Source: Escherichia coli | Lineage (GTDB): Bacteria; Pseudomonadota; Gammaproteobacteria; Enterobacterales; Enterobacteriaceae | DNA: 64,000 nucleotides | Assembly: GCF_050920415.1 (NCBI RefSeq) | Contig: NZ_CP169309.1 | Reading direction: 5' to 3' (one strand) | Program-made: the position numbers and the translations under genes | Part shown: positions 13,296 to 50,040 of the stretch, piece by piece | Layout: the number at the start of each line of letters is the position of its first letter | Position numbering within the stretch: position 1 is the first letter of the stretch | Notes under the pieces: generated by a model | The model's database searches: none | What the model saw: only the letters and a program-made list of their open reading frames with translations | What the model was told of the DNA's origin: nothing

Positions 13296-13391
13296 CAATT
13301 AAGCTAACCGTCGTTAGAATCGTCCCCTTTTTTTCAGGATCCGGCATGTAGGCCGGATCAGGAACGACAAAACAATGGCCTGGAGGCTACC

Positions 13392-14381: not shown

Positions 14382-17300
14382 GTGCGCCTGATTATCACTT
14401 TTCTGATGGCCTGGTGCCTCAGTTGGGGGGCGTACGCCGCGACGGCCCCCGATAGTAAACAAATCACCCAGGAACTGGAGCAGGCAAAAGCGGCGAAACC
14501 CGCGCAGCCGGAAGTCGTAGAGGCACTCCAGTCCGCCTTAAATGCGCTTGAGGAACGAAAAGGTTCCCTTGAGCGCATCAAGCAATATCAAGAAGTCATT
14601 GATAATTACCCGAAACTTTCCGCTACTCTGCGCGCGCAATTAAACAACATGCGTGACGAGCCGCGCAGCGTATCGCCGGGAATGTCTACCGACGCGCTGA
14701 ATCAGGAAATTCTCCAGGTCAGCAGCCAGTTGCTGGATAAGAGCCGTCAGGCCCAGCAGGAACAGGAACGTGCCCGCGAGATTGCCGATTCGCTGAATCA
14801 ATTACCGCAACAGCAAACCGACGCTCGCCGTCAGTTGAATGAAATCGAGCGGCGGCTGGGAACACTTACCGGCAATACCCCGCTTAATCAGGCACAAAAT
14901 TTCGCGTTGCAATCTGACTCTGCACGACTGAAGGCGCTCGTTGATGAACTGGAATTGGCGCAGCTGTCTGCCAATAACCGCCAGGAATTAGCGCGTTTAC
15001 GCTCAGAGCTGGCGGAAAAAGAGAGCCAGCAGCTGGATGCATATTTGCAGGCCTTGCGTAATCAGTTGAACAGCCAACGTCAGCTTGAGGCGGAGCGGGC
15101 GCTGGAAAGCACCGAACTTCTGGCGGAAAACAGTGCCGATTTGCCGAAAGATATCGTCGCGCAATTCAAAATTAACCGCGAGCTGTCGGCGGCGTTGAAT
15201 CAACAGGCGCAGCGGATGGATCTCGTTGCCTCGCAACAGCGTCAGGCTGCCAGCCAGACGTTACAGGTCCGGCAGGCGTTGAATACGCTGCGTGAACAAT
15301 CACAATGGCTGGGATCGTCCAACCTACTCGGTGAAGCGTTGCGGGCGCAGGTGGCACGGCTGCCGGAAATGCCAAAACCACAACAGCTTGATACCGAAAT
15401 GGCGCAGTTGCGTGTGCAACGGTTACGTTATGAGGATCTGCTCAATAAACAGCCGCTGCTACGGCAAATCCATCAGGCAGACGGTCAGCCGCTGACCGCC
15501 GAGCAAAACCGTATTCTGGAAGCACAGCTACGCACTCAGCGTGAGTTGCTGAACTCATTGTTGCAGGGTGGTGACACGTTACTGCTGGAGCTGACCAAGT
15601 TGAAAGTCTCCAACGGGCAACTGGAAGATGCGCTGAAAGAAGTGAATGAAGCGACGCACCGCTACCTGTTCTGGACTTCTGACGTGCGCCCGATGACCAT
15701 CGCCTGGCCGCTGGAGATCGCTCAGGATCTGCGTCGTCTCATTTCGCTGGACACCTTCAGTCAGTTGGGCAAAGCCAGCGTAATGATGCTGACCAGCAAA
15801 GAGACGATTTTGCCGCTGTTTGGCGCGTTGATTCTGGTCGGTTGCAGTATTTACTCACGCCGCTATTTCACCCGTTTTCTTGAACGTTCGGCGGCGAAAG
15901 TCGGCAAAGTGACTCAGGATCACTTCTGGCTGACGTTGCGCACCCTTTTCTGGTCGATTCTCGTCGCATCACCGCTACCGGTGCTGTGGATGACGCTGGG
16001 TTACGGCTTGCGCGAGGCGTGGCCTTATCCGCTGGCGGTCGCAATTGGTGATGGCGTAACGGCCACCGTACCGCTGCTGTGGGTAGTGATGATTTGCGCC
16101 ACCTTTGCCCGTCCGAACGGCTTGTTTATCGCTCATTTCGGCTGGCCACGCGAACGGGTTTCCCGGGGGATGCGTTACTACCTGATGAGCATCGGGCTTA
16201 TTGTGCCGCTGATTATGGCGCTGATGATGTTCGATAACCTCGACGACCGTGAATTCTCCGGTTCGCTGGGACGGCTTTGTTTTATCCTCATTTGCGGTGC
16301 GCTGGCGGTGGTCACCCTCAGCCTGAAAAAGGCCGGCATTCCGTTGTATCTCAACAAAGAAGGCAGCGGCGACAACATTACCAACCATATGCTGTGGAAC
16401 ATGATGATTGGCGCGCCGTTGGTTGCCATTCTGGCGTCGGCGGTGGGTTATCTGGCAACGGCGCAGGCGCTGTTAGCGAGGCTTGAAACCTCGGTTGCCA
16501 TCTGGTTCCTGCTACTGGTGGTTTATCACGTTATCCGCCGCTGGATGCTGATCCAACGCCGCAGGCTGGCGTTTGACCGGGCGAAGCATCGCCGGGCAGA
16601 GATGTTAGCGCAGCGTGCGCGTGGCGAAGAGGAAGCGCATCATCACAGTAGCCCGGAAGGGGCAATTGAAGTCGATGAAAGTGAAGTCGATCTCGATGCC
16701 ATCAGTGCACAATCCTTGCGGCTGGTGCGCTCAATCCTGATGTTGATCGCCCTACTTTCAGTCATTGTGCTGTGGTCAGAAATCCATTCCGCTTTCGGCT
16801 TCCTCGAAAATATTTCGCTGTGGGATGTCACTTCCACGGTACAGGGCGTGGAAAGCCTGGAGCCGATTACCCTCGGTGCGGTGCTAATTGCCATTCTGGT
16901 GTTTATCATCACCACGCAGCTGGTGCGCAACCTGCCCGCGCTGCTGGAACTGGCGATTTTGCAGCACCTCGATTTAACGCCGGGTACCGGCTACGCCATC
17001 ACCACCATCACCAAATATCTATTGATGCTGATTGGCGGGCTGGTAGGTTTCTCGATGATTGGTATTGAGTGGTCGAAATTACAGTGGCTGGTCGCCGCGC
17101 TCGGTGTTGGTCTGGGCTTTGGTTTGCAGGAAATTTTCGCCAACTTTATCTCTGGCCTGATCATCCTGTTCGAAAAACCGATTCGCATTGGCGATACGGT
17201 GACGATCCGCGATCTCACCGGTAGTGTGACGAAAATTAACACCCGCGCCACCACCATCAGCGACTGGGACCGCAAAGAAATTATCGTGCCGAACAAGGCG

Positions 17301-17705
17301 TTTATTACCGAGCAGTTTATCAACTGGTCGCTCTCTGACTCGGTCACGCGCGTGGTGTTGACGATTCCGGCCCCTGCCGATGCCAACAGTGAAGAAGTGA
17401 CGGAAATCCTGCTCACCGCAGCGCGTCGCTGCTCGCTGGTGATCGACAACCCGGCGCCGGAAGTCTTCCTGGTGGATCTGCAGCAGGGGATTCAGATTTT
17501 CGAGCTGCGTATTTACGCCGCTGAGATGGGTCACCGTATGCCGCTACGCCATGAGATCCACCAGCTGATTCTGGCTGGCTTCCACGCCCACGGTATCGAT
17601 ATGCCATTCCCGCCCTTCCAGATGCGTCTGGAAAGCCTCAACGGTAAACAAACGGGGAGAACATTAACTTCTGCGGGCAAAGGTCGTCAGGCAGGAAGTT
17701 TGTAA
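14382..17705 (+). CDS. mscM: Miniconductance mechanosensitive channel MscM (YjeP)
   Basis: 1107-aa ORF, GTG start, signal peptide, long coiled-coil periplasmic region, MscS-like C-terminal domain. Confidence 0.92.
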   Translation: MRLIITFLMAWCLSWGAYAATAPDSKQITQELEQAKAAKPAQPEVVEALQSALNALEERKGSLERIKQYQEVIDNYPKLSATLRAQLNNMRDEPRSVSPGMSTDALNQEILQVSSQLLDKSRQAQQEQERAREIADSLNQLPQQQTDARRQLNEIERRLGTLTGNTPLNQAQNFALQSDSARLKALVDELELAQLSANNRQELARLRSELAEKESQQLDAYLQALRNQLNSQRQLEAERALESTELLAENSADLPKDIVAQFKINRELSAALNQQAQRMDLVASQQRQAASQTLQVRQALNTLREQSQWLGSSNLLGEALRAQVARLPEMPKPQQLDTEMAQLRVQRLRYEDLLNKQPLLRQIHQADGQPLTAEQNRILEAQLRTQRELLNSLLQGGDTLLLELTKLKVSNGQLEDALKEVNEATHRYLFWTSDVRPMTIAWPLEIAQDLRRLISLDTFSQLGKASVMMLTSKETILPLFGALILVGCSIYSRRYFTRFLERSAAKVGKVTQDHFWLTLRTLFWSILVASPLPVLWMTLGYGLREAWPYPLAVAIGDGVTATVPLLWVVMICATFARPNGLFIAHFGWPRERVSRGMRYYLMSIGLIVPLIMALMMFDNLDDREFSGSLGRLCFILICGALAVVTLSLKKAGIPLYLNKEGSGDNITNHMLWNMMIGAPLVAILASAVGYLATAQALLARLETSVAIWFLLLVVYHVIRRWMLIQRRRLAFDRAKHRRAEMLAQRARGEEEAHHHSSPEGAIEVDESEVDLDAISAQSLRLVRSILMLIALLSVIVLWSEIHSAFGFLENISLWDVTSTVQGVESLEPITLGAVLIAILVFIITTQLVRNLPALLELAILQHLDLTPGTGYAITTITKYLLMLIGGLVGFSMIGIEWSKLQWLVAALGVGLGFGLQEIFANFISGLIILFEKPIRIGDTVTIRDLTGSVTKINTRATTISDWDRKEIIVPNKAFITEQFINWSLSDSVTRVVLTIPAPADANSEEVTEILLTAARRCSLVIDNPAPEVFLVDLQQGIQIFELRIYAAEMGHRMPLRHEIHQLILAGFHAHGIDMPFPPFQMRLESLNGKQTGRTLTSAGKGRQAGSL

Positions 17706-17735
17706 GGTCTTTGTGGCCGGATGAACCCATCCGGC

Positions 17736-18050
17736 TCACAAGCAAAACTGATAGCGCAGAAAAAACTGCCACAACCAGTAGCCGAAAATAGCCAGGGCGG
17801 TGGCGTACATAAACCAGCCGCGTTTTTTTCGCCACAAAGCGAACCAGAGAAAAGGGAAAAAGAGCGGTAACGTCATTATCACACCGACATCGCGAGTATC
17901 GTCATCTTCGAGATACATCAAAACATCACAGACGTTGTTAATCCCGCGTCCATCAATCATCCACTCTTTGTCCAGCGCGGAGGTAATGGTTATCCAGAGG
18001 AACGCCACAATGAACCAGATGCAGCACAAGACAAACATGCGCGCACTCAT
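17736..18050 (-). CDS. yjeO: Small inner membrane protein YjeO
   Basis: 104-aa hydrophobic ORF at the expected position between mscM and yjeM. Confidence 0.7.
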   Translation of the reverse strand: MSARMFVLCCIWFIVAFLWITITSALDKEWMIDGRGINNVCDVLMYLEDDDTRDVGVIMTLPLFFPFLWFALWRKKRGWFMYATALAIFGYWLWQFFLRYQFCL

Positions 18051-18147
18051 GAGATAATCGGTCGCTTAATTTCGCTATAGCGCATACGAAATCCCGCTAA
18101 TTCCCTGTCATTGCGCCCTATCGTCAGGCAGACGATAGGGCATCGGG

Positions 18148-19650
18148 TTATTCCACCGCCCACTGCGGATTTTTTGCCACTCTGCTGCAATAGTTCTGGT
18201 AAATCGCCATCGCTAACAGCGAGAAGAAGACAGGGCCGCCAATCATCCACAATGTGCTGTCCCAGTCTCCGGCTTCAACCACAGGTTGAATGATGGTGAA
18301 GACGTTCGCAAATGTCACCACCAGTACGACAACCACTGTCGCAATCATTGCCGACATATGTGTTTTGAAAATCACAAACGGTCTGTCGAGATCCTGACGT
18401 GCTTTAAAGAACGGGAAAGCCAGTGCAAGGAACAGGTAAGGAAGCGTCATAGACACGTTCGCCATCAGCGTTAGCTTGTTAAAGAATGCCGATGCGGTGC
18501 CACCACCAAACGAAACCAGCAGGATGAAGACAGTAACCAACCCGCACTGCATCCACATGGCGATAGACGGCATGCCCATCGCATTCAGCCGCGTCATCGG
18601 TTCCGGCCACAACGCTTTCGGCGTCCCCTGGATGATAGCTTTCAACGGTGAATAGCAAAGCGTAAAGAACGCGCCAGTGTAAGCGAGGAACATCGAAAGC
18701 CCGGTAATACGCGCAAACCATACACCCAGCGACAATGACGCTTCAGGTGACAAATGCAGTGCGTTACCCAGCGTCAACCCGAGGCTCTTCATCAGCACAT
18801 AGGTAATATTGCCAAGGTTAACGGAACCATTACTTAATACCTGCTGCCAGTTTGTGCTGACGCCCCATAAAAATATTGCCAGCGAATAACCGATTGAAAT
18901 AACAATAGCGGCAAAAACAATACCTTTGGCAAAGTTCTTTTCTGGATTTTCCGTTTTATCGACCAGACCACCAACCGCTTCAATTCCGCCATAGGCAAAA
19001 ATAGCAAATACCACAAACGATAGCATTGCCAGACCGGACTGATAACCTGGATTCGGTGATGTCAGGAAATTAATATCCTGCGCGAAATGCCCACCATTTA
19101 ATAACAAAATAGTAATGCTTACTAACAGCAATACTAAATTAAGACACATTACTGCAATACCGCCCACCGCAGTAATACGGGCAATTTTATTAATCCCTTT
19201 TGAAGCAACGACGGTGACCAGAATCATCCATGCCACTGCCAGCAGACCAACCACCTGCGTAGGTTCCAGTCCGGCAATACGCCAGTGCTGGGTCATGTCG
19301 CTACCGTAGAGAAATGTTGAGAACGGTACCCAAACTTTCGCGGAGGTGCTCACCATCCAGATGATATAAGAGGAAAACCACATAAACGTACCAATGAAGG
19401 CAAAACGTGGTCCGACACTATTATTCATCCAGGAATAGATACCGCCTTCTTCTTTGCGATACGCAGCGCCCATTTCAGCCATCATTAAGGCGAATGGAAT
19501 AAAGAATAACAATGCAGAAAATATATAAAAGGGAATCGCACTATAACCCATTAAGTAATAAGCCGATGGGCTATTGGCAAATCCAAATACAGAAGTAAAG
19601 ATCATCAATATGAGCCCTATCAGACTCATCTTTTTTATCGTGTGAGGCAT
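18148..19650 (-). CDS. yjeM: Putative amino acid/polyamine (APC family) transporter YjeM
   Basis: ORF-track 505 aa; start set at MPHTIKKMSLIG...; multi-TM permease. Confidence 0.85.
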   Translation of the reverse strand: MPHTIKKMSLIGLILMIFTSVFGFANSPSAYYLMGYSAIPFYIFSALLFFIPFALMMAEMGAAYRKEEGGIYSWMNNSVGPRFAFIGTFMWFSSYIIWMVSTSAKVWVPFSTFLYGSDMTQHWRIAGLEPTQVVGLLAVAWMILVTVVASKGINKIARITAVGGIAVMCLNLVLLLVSITILLLNGGHFAQDINFLTSPNPGYQSGLAMLSFVVFAIFAYGGIEAVGGLVDKTENPEKNFAKGIVFAAIVISIGYSLAIFLWGVSTNWQQVLSNGSVNLGNITYVLMKSLGLTLGNALHLSPEASLSLGVWFARITGLSMFLAYTGAFFTLCYSPLKAIIQGTPKALWPEPMTRLNAMGMPSIAMWMQCGLVTVFILLVSFGGGTASAFFNKLTLMANVSMTLPYLFLALAFPFFKARQDLDRPFVIFKTHMSAMIATVVVVLVVTFANVFTIIQPVVEAGDWDSTLWMIGGPVFFSLLAMAIYQNYCSRVAKNPQWAVE

Positions 19651-50006: not shown

Positions 50007-50040
50007 ACGAACGAAGCAGTCAGACGACTGCTTCGTTCGT
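50007..50040. terminator. Bidirectional terminator-like hairpin between lysU and ghoT
   Basis: Perfect 15-bp inverted repeat ACGAACGAAGCAGTC-AGAC-GACTGCTTCGTTCGT between convergent genes; no strong T-run. Confidence 0.45.

Follow-up and report, generated by a model that had tools for sequence, protein, structure and literature searches.

A minimal REP-type hairpin between the convergent mscM and yjeO genes of Escherichia coli and its possible function at the 3' end of the mscM mRNA

Results

The intergenic hairpin of mscM and yjeO

We analyzed a stretch of 64,000 nucleotides of Escherichia coli DNA, referred to as the window throughout this report. Its best match among sequenced genomes is 99.9% identical and most E. 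coli genomes match it at 95-99% identity; the window represents E. coli but not strain K-12. RefSeq names the genes at the matching locus mscM, yjeO, and yjeM. The stop codons of the convergently oriented mscM and yjeO genes are separated by a gap of 30 nt, which is occupied by a hairpin (Table 1). The core of this hairpin begins 10 nt and its extended stem 5 nt downstream of the mscM stop codon. The yjeO reading frame ends at position 17736, and its stop codon therefore directly abuts the core (distance of 0 nt); since the CACAA arm of the lower stem corresponds to positions 17737-17741, the yjeO stop codon and the last leucine codon belong to the stem. The two genes are expressed at quite different levels, with a low base mean of 62 for yjeO vs. 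1794 for mscM (Harris et al., 2026; bioRxiv 10.64898/2026.03.23.713779).

Table 1. Coordinates of the features at the mscM/yjeO junction; positions are those of the window.
Feature	Position	Strand	Description	Basis
mscM coding sequence	14382-17705	+	stop codon TAA at 17703-17705	ORF list; RefSeq annotation of a 99.9% identical strain
Lower stem, 5' arm	17710-17715		U/TTGTG; its partner is the last codon of yjeO together with part of the stop codon	RNA folds of both strands
Core palindrome	17716-17735		GCCGGATG-AACC-CATCCGGC; arms 17716-17723 and 17728-17735, loop 17724-17727	ortholog of K-12 REP330
Bulged T and lower stem, 3' arm	17736-17742		T at 17736, followed by CACAA(G)	sequence, ORF list, RNA folds
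yjeO stop codon	17736-17738	-	TGA (TCA on the + strand); last codon TTG (Leu) at 17739-17741	
yjeO coding sequence	17736-18050	-	104 amino acids, DUF2645 inner-membrane protein; oriented toward mscM (convergent pair)	
Expected steady-state 3' end of the mscM mRNA	17750-17754	+		transferred from K-12 position 4386002 by alignment and collinearity
Antisense strand of the mscM 3' end, downstream of the hairpin in the yjeO sense	17620-17709	-	10% excess of C over G within the first 78 nt	

Between positions 17700 and 17749 the window reads TTGTAAGGTCTTTGTGGCCGGATGAACCCATCCGGCTCACAAGCAAAACT. The core stem consists of 8 perfectly matched base pairs closed by a 4-nt loop, and a motif search placed its two arms on the + and the - strand, respectively. 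Beyond the bulged T at position 17736, the stem is prolonged through the pairing of TTGTG (17711-17715) with CACAA (17737-17741) to a total of about 13 bp, and the RNA fold contains a possible additional wobble pair between U17710 and G17742 at the base of the hairpin. Folded as 32-nt RNAs, the hairpin possesses a free energy of -21.0 kcal/mol in the + RNA and of -20.3 kcal/mol in the - RNA. The corresponding z-scores are -6.4 and -5.4, and not a single one of 200 shuffled sequences was equally stable; the stability of the hairpin is far above chance expectation. When all 32-nt segments of the + strand of the 64-kb window were folded, nine of 63,969 reached -21.0 kcal/mol or less, and these derive from three loci among which the mscM/yjeO hairpin ranks third.

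The presence of a hairpin at this junction had been proposed in an earlier note on this DNA, and the palindrome, the RNA folds of both strands, and the shuffle test bear this out. The parse offered there (8 + 5 + 7 nt) recognized the palindrome correctly but misjudged its arm and loop lengths, which are those of an 8-bp stem with a 4-nt loop. Likewise, the contention that the element overlaps the 3' end of yjeO holds for the extended stem but not for the core, which merely adjoins the stop codon.

The arm sequence GCCGGATG is found at three further places in the window; all of these copies are non-palindromic and look like chance matches in coding-like sequence. Other stable hairpins are present as well. 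The most stable fold of the window (-23.8 kcal/mol) is formed by a perfect 15-bp inverted repeat, ACGAACGAAGCAGTC-AGAC-GACTGCTTCGTTCGT, at positions 50007-50040. An 11-bp hairpin, GCCCTATCGTC-AGGCA-GACGATAGGGC, lies just past yjeM at positions 18115-18141 and represents the second most stable 32-nt fold (-21.4 kcal/mol). A second REP-type hairpin, GATCCGGC-ATGTAG-GCCGGATC, is located between the rsgA stop codon and the psd start codon (positions 13333-13362); here, GCCGGAT adjoins the canonical GTAG that the mscM/yjeO element lacks, and the 32-nt fold has a free energy of -17.9 kcal/mol.

The hairpin is an ortholog of the K-12 element REP330

REP330 is listed by Harris et al. (2026), in one of their supplementary tables, as a convergent element positioned between yjeO and mscM at coordinates 4386020-4386039 of the K-12 genome. 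We extracted the K-12 bases at these coordinates, CCGGATTGGTTCATCCGGCA, and their alignment showed that they match the palindrome of the window. The hairpin of the window is hence the ortholog of REP330 and, since the REP330 coordinates hold the same palindrome, an element that has already been catalogued as a REP. The two elements share the locus, the flanking genes, and the GCCGGAT...ATCCGGC core, and they differ in a few details. In K-12 MG1655, the junction reads GTTTGTG-T-GCCGGAT-GAACCA-ATCCGGC-T-CACAAAC. In comparison, the window possesses an additional loop-closing G-C pair (loop AACC vs. GAACCA in K-12), a bulged T in place of the T:T mismatch of K-12, a lower stem of 5-6 bp instead of 7 bp, and a spacer after the mscM stop codon that is longer by 2 nt.

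For comparisons with other REPs, eleven further K-12 REP elements were retrieved through the coordinates given in the table of Harris et al. (2026), and the single units among them, together with the hairpin of E. albertii, were aligned to the element of the window. Both 7-nt feet (TGCCGGATG ... ATCCGGC) are identical to those of the canonical K-12 REP units at 14 of 14 positions. This exact alignment, in conjunction with the REP330 catalogue entry, substantiates the label "REP-like" that the earlier note had used. E. coli REPs are imperfect palindromes of 30-40 nt (Ton-Hoang et al., 2012). The core at the mscM/yjeO junction comprises 20 nt and thus falls below this range; its inner stem is absent, which is seen as a 13-nt gap in the alignment, and the additional length of the local hairpin derives from flanking sequence that is unrelated to REPs. 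Two of their features, the conserved GTAG of the foot and a mismatch within the stem, are required by the REP-associated transposase (Ton-Hoang et al., 2012). The GTAG/CTAC tag is absent from the element of the window, whose core is flanked by TGTG and TCAC on the + strand and by GTGA and CACA on the - strand, while canonical units carry CCTAC. The stem mismatch is absent as well: the 8-bp core is perfect, and the sole irregularity is the T that bulges out where the core meets the lower stem.

Compared with the canonical E. coli REPs, i.e., the palindromic units y, z1, and z2 and the BIMEs formed from them, the element thus possesses identical 7-nt feet and occupies an extragenic 3'-end site between convergent genes. 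It differs from them in its length of 20 nt, in having TCAC in place of CTAC, in its lack of an inner stem, a stem mismatch, and a BIME partner, and in being single-copy. REP303, which is located between cdh and tpiA, is another very short annotated K-12 REP (GTGCCGGAT-ATGAA-ATCCGGCAC); it likewise consists of the foot only and lies at a convergent junction, but its loop and its flanks differ from those of the mscM/yjeO element, and evidence for common descent stops at the REP foot. Judged by these sequence features, "minimal REP" is an accurate label for an element that is filed as a REP and lacks the features expected of a transposase substrate.

Searches of the 64-kb window with the full canonical REP consensus, allowing three mismatches, gave no matches; the 3' half of this consensus has one match in the window (13348-13361), which is separate from the mscM/yjeO element. 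A search against Rfam yielded only a sub-threshold chance match to an archaeal snoRNA. The RefSeq record NC_000913.3 contains no REP features, even at known REPs, and the missing annotation at mscM/yjeO is therefore uninformative.

Distribution and conservation of the junction in Escherichia

We inspected 5426 complete E. coli genomes by BLAST with 11-nt words, a search that is blind to a foot of 7-8 nt on its own. The 46-nt element was found in 3027 of them, with a median of one place per genome; with one occurrence per genome, this specific 46-nt sequence is not a dispersed repeat. The same 3027 genomes (about 56%) possess yjeO together with the hairpin. In another 2395 genomes (about 44%; BL21, E2348/69, and others), homology to the window ends exactly at the mscM stop codon, and these genomes contain neither yjeO nor the REP-type core. 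Since these two groups nearly fill the set of 5426 genomes, the hairpin travels with yjeO, with which it co-occurs in the E. coli genomes.

The yjeO-less allele retains outer GAAGCTGC...GCAGCTT arms around a different insert of 25 nt, and this structure folds at -20.6 kcal/mol. It is collinear with E. albertii except for a deletion of about 610 bp that comprises yjeO and most of yjeN, of which a 5' remnant has stayed behind. The segment from mscM to the 3' end of yjeM (17706-18170 of the window) is thus polymorphic in E. coli: K-12 possesses both yjeO and yjeN, and the window has yjeO only, with a scar at about 18091-18100 that marks a 273-bp deletion of yjeN. In the yjeO-less allele, another hairpin (CAACTCATCG...CGATGAGTTG) substitutes for the hairpin found at positions 18115-18141 of the window.

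A genome-wide search for YjeO identified four loci only, and all of these belong to members of the genus Escherichia. Hairpins of the window type are present in Escherichia sp. E1V33 and in one divergent E. coli. Between the same stop codons, E. albertii carries GAAGCT-GCCGGAT-GTGA-ATCTGGC-AGCTTC, and the same junction of E. whittamii reads GAAGCT-GCCGGAG-TCGA-CTCTGGC-AGCTTC. The core of the two latter species, GCCGGAN...NTCTGGC, forms the same 7-bp stem as that of E. coli, and its presence at this very position rules out a recent insertion of a REP into a junction that had previously been devoid of a hairpin. The lower stem differs by allele type: it is formed by GAAGCT/AGCTTC in the E. albertii type, and in E. 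coli it is the last yjeO codons that pair.

In an alignment of seven sequences, none of the 49 pair cells is left unpaired; a single change is compensatory (T-A to G-C), and G.U variants occur at two pairs. As judged by a covariation test, 72 of 500 shuffles performed as well, a data set that, with seven sequences and one compensatory pair, is too small for significance. One-sided changes were found from C to T in E. albertii and E. whittamii and from A to G in strain 08A21CPO005. Strain PAR carries two C to T changes that are neutral for yjeO, as one is synonymous in the last leucine codon and the other converts one stop codon into another. Each of the one-sided changes results in a G.U pair in the mscM-sense RNA and in an A.C apposition in the yjeO sense. 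Because pairing is maintained solely in the mscM sense, this pattern hints that selection may act on the mscM transcript; given about four events, it would arise by chance in roughly 1 of 16 cases.

Transcript 3' ends and Rho-dependent termination at the junction

The hairpin is not followed by a U-tract on either strand: downstream of the stem, the + strand reads GCAAAACTGA and the - strand AGACCTTACA. A terminator scan did not report the hairpin on either strand. With GC-rich stem-loops at the end of genes, the element and intrinsic terminators have a common feature; however, the hairpin differs from them in having no U-tract and in the opposite polarity of its flanks, which are T-rich on the 5' side and A-rich on the 3' side of the + strand. 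The lack of a U-tract on both strands rules out a classical intrinsic (Rho-independent) terminator. The same scan revealed a weak terminator-like site inside yjeO at 17768-17782 (- strand; GCTACTGGTTGTGGC followed by AGTTTTTTCT), and a run of seven T residues after GC-rich sequence is present at 17818-17830 (+ strand), which is some 115 nt beyond the stop codon of mscM; either of these sites could help to end read-through transcripts.

For K-12, a TRS analysis of RNAtag-seq data places the primary 3' terminus of mscM at position 4386002 on the - strand (PMC10687069, Supplementary Data 4). This position is 46 nt past the mscM stop codon and 9 nt past the base of the extended stem of K-12, and aligns to about position 17752 of the window. 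Adams et al. (2021) curated a Term-seq list that, in its complete form, has no entry at 43860xx and attributes no 3' end to either mscM or yjeO; the mscM 3' end consequently rests on one study. A 3' end of yjeO at the junction is absent both from Adams et al. (2021) and from the tables of PMC10687069. The TRS table of the latter study also reports a transcription start at K-12 position 4386146 (- strand), which lies inside the 3' end of mscM, 99 nt before its stop codon. In combination with the 3' end at 4386002, this start would delimit an RNA some 145 nt long (about 17606-17752 of the window, + strand), although coverage does not mark it as abundant.

In the yjeO direction, a Rho termination region has been reported on the K-12 + strand, antisense to mscM, with a peak at 4386122 and a Rho score of 3.59 (p = 3e-5; Adams et al., 2021, supplementary file 2). 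Reads upstream and downstream of this region numbered 53 and 12 in untreated cells, and 369 and 300 in the presence of bicyclomycin (Adams et al., 2021). The peak is situated 104 nt beyond the yjeO stop codon, corresponding to about position 17630 of the window. As this region lies about 100 nt past the hairpin, RNA polymerase that arrives from the yjeO side appears to read through it; transcription in the yjeO direction thus appears to cross the hairpin at least in part before it is ended by Rho. The K-12 data contain no reported Rho signal for the mscM direction. In vitro, Rho peaks were observed with and without NusG inside yjeO in the sense orientation at 4385809-4385928 on the + strand (Harris et al., 2026), which corresponds to about 17826-17945 on the - strand of the window; these peaks suggest premature Rho-dependent termination of untranslated yjeO.

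The earlier note had viewed the hairpin as a likely bidirectional terminator and had named transcript 3' ends at this position as a check. The setting of the hairpin between convergent stop codons and the K-12 mscM 3' end 9 nt past the stem agree with that view, but the missing U-tract and the Rho-dependent read-through from the yjeO side do not. A 3' end has been mapped for the mscM direction by one K-12 study, which is what the note's own check asks for in that direction, but it is not contained in the second (Term-seq) data set, and none has been mapped for yjeO. The terminator view thus finds partial support.

Discussion

We consider it probable, with a fair measure of caution, that the hairpin at the mscM/yjeO junction serves as a stem-loop that defines 3' ends and blocks exonucleases, chiefly for the benefit of mscM, and that in neither direction does it work efficiently as a classical intrinsic terminator. 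The identity, the structure, and the conservation of the element are shown, as are, by published K-12 data, the 3' end and the Rho region. According to this model, the hairpin would act as RNA: at the end of the mscM mRNA it would fold into a stem-loop of about -21 kcal/mol that sets the steady-state 3' end of the transcript about 9-11 nt downstream. We infer that this structure stops the 3'-to-5' exonucleases PNPase and RNase II, and that the K-12 data carry over to the strain of the window; the stem-loop would probably also cause RNA polymerase to pause. Transcription from the yjeO side would traverse the hairpin until Rho stops the polymerase about 100 nt further on, within the antisense strand of mscM.

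There are precedents for such a function. E. coli transcripts that are ended by Rho possess precise steady-state 3' ends just past stable, U-less stem-loops, and such structures guard against PNPase and RNase II (Dar and Sorek, 2018). The mscM/yjeO hairpin resembles these protective stem-loops in being stable, in lacking a U-tract, and in having a 3' end a few nucleotides downstream. It differs from them in that Rho action at the junction is reported for the yjeO strand only and the 3' end is mapped for mscM only. Harris et al. (2026) found REPs in 207 of 704 convergent gene pairs, and they showed for a model REP that it is both a partial Rho-dependent terminator and a stabilizer of the upstream mRNA. 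Genes terminated by REPs do not have longer half-lives genome-wide (Harris et al., 2026), a finding that counts against a role as a stabilizer.

Trimming by exonucleases would account for a 3' end beside a U-less hairpin equally well as termination, and the position of the mscM 3' end 9 nt past the hairpin also fits its release driven by the hairpin itself. A rival reading is that of a genuine bidirectional terminator of the non-canonical class identified by SEnd-seq between convergent E. coli genes, in which the hairpin pauses both polymerases and head-on and trailing collisions then release them with neither a U-tract nor Rho. We regard this as possible but rather doubtful here. In overlapping bidirectional terminators of convergent genes (Ju et al., 2019; Wang et al., 2022), a hairpin that is unlike an intrinsic terminator is found in the region common to a convergent gene pair; a stable hairpin centered between convergent stop codons matches this description, and 78 REPs fall within 306 mapped bidirectional terminators (Harris et al., 2026). 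However, the junction has just one of the two 3' ends documented, the one for yjeO being missing from the tables of Adams et al. (2021) and PMC10687069, and the read-through on the yjeO strand is dependent on Rho, although the class is described as Rho-independent. Moreover, termination by collision is weak in poorly expressed pairs, which fits badly with the low expression of yjeO (base mean of 62 vs. 1794 for mscM), and the Harris et al. (2026) tables, in the part covered here, name REP330 in the Rho tables only. Taken in its own right, the bidirectional-terminator reading is plausible in kind and unsupported as stated, and the hairpin is an ordinary one.

A different activity, and one that is compatible with protection of the mRNA, would be exerted on translation. 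According to the account of Liang et al. (2015) given in PMC12306157, REPs closer than 16 nt to a stop codon reportedly cause ribosomes to stall during termination and reduce translation. With its core 10 nt (and its extended stem 5 nt) after the mscM stop codon and 0 nt after that of yjeO, the hairpin lies within 15 nt of both; ribosomes stalled there might lead to mRNA cleavage, trans-translation, and reduced amounts of MscM and YjeO. We judge this to be unlikely, as the effect was demonstrated with full-length REPs. The loss of GTAG/CTAC and of the inner stem, along with the complete absence of the REP-type core from 2395 of the 5426 E. coli genomes, might instead be taken to mean that the element is a decayed REP remnant that has no selected function and is retained only through its linkage to yjeO. 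This is improbable in view of the unbroken core stem of every E. coli variant sampled and of another three Escherichia species, one compensatory change included, of a lower stem that was rebuilt from unlike sequence in two allele types, and of the hairpin that even the yjeO-less genomes possess after the mscM stop codon. A role at the level of the DNA, be it as a target of RAYT/TnpA-REP, as a recombination hotspot, or as a protein-binding site, we deem highly improbable. In keeping with such a role, the yjeO-plus and yjeO-minus alleles lose their homology precisely at the mscM stop codon, adjoining the hairpin, and REPs differ in position among strains (Harris et al., 2026), but the loss of homology is accounted for by the age and the divergence of the two alleles, of which one resembles that of E. 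albertii. Furthermore, binding and cleavage by TnpA-REP depend on GTAG and the stem mismatch (Ton-Hoang et al., 2012), neither of which is present in the core, and both a BIME partner and a linker are absent.

The label REP330 may hide a 3'-end structure of mscM that has been selected, and not a mobile repeat: in the yjeO-carrying Escherichia species the core hairpin directly follows the mscM stop codon, the changes it tolerates all keep the mscM-sense RNA paired, and its lower stem has been rebuilt twice. With the yjeO stop codon placed within the stem, the termination of yjeO translation and the formation of overlapping, complementary 3' ends might even be mechanically coupled. We offer this notion as a speculation with a low probability of being correct.

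The importance of the element is mostly one of annotation, since it has been catalogued as a REP and REPs are already established as mRNA stabilizers, partial terminators, and modulators of translation. More generally, the presence of a U-less hairpin between convergent genes does not by itself justify the label "bidirectional terminator" from the sequence; the published K-12 data point to an asymmetry in which the mscM transcript ends at the hairpin and transcription from the yjeO side reads through in a Rho-dependent manner. With about 56% of the E. coli genomes carrying yjeO and the hairpin, and about 44% a deletion allele with another hairpin, the locus represents a small natural experiment that could be used to test the function of a minimal REP.
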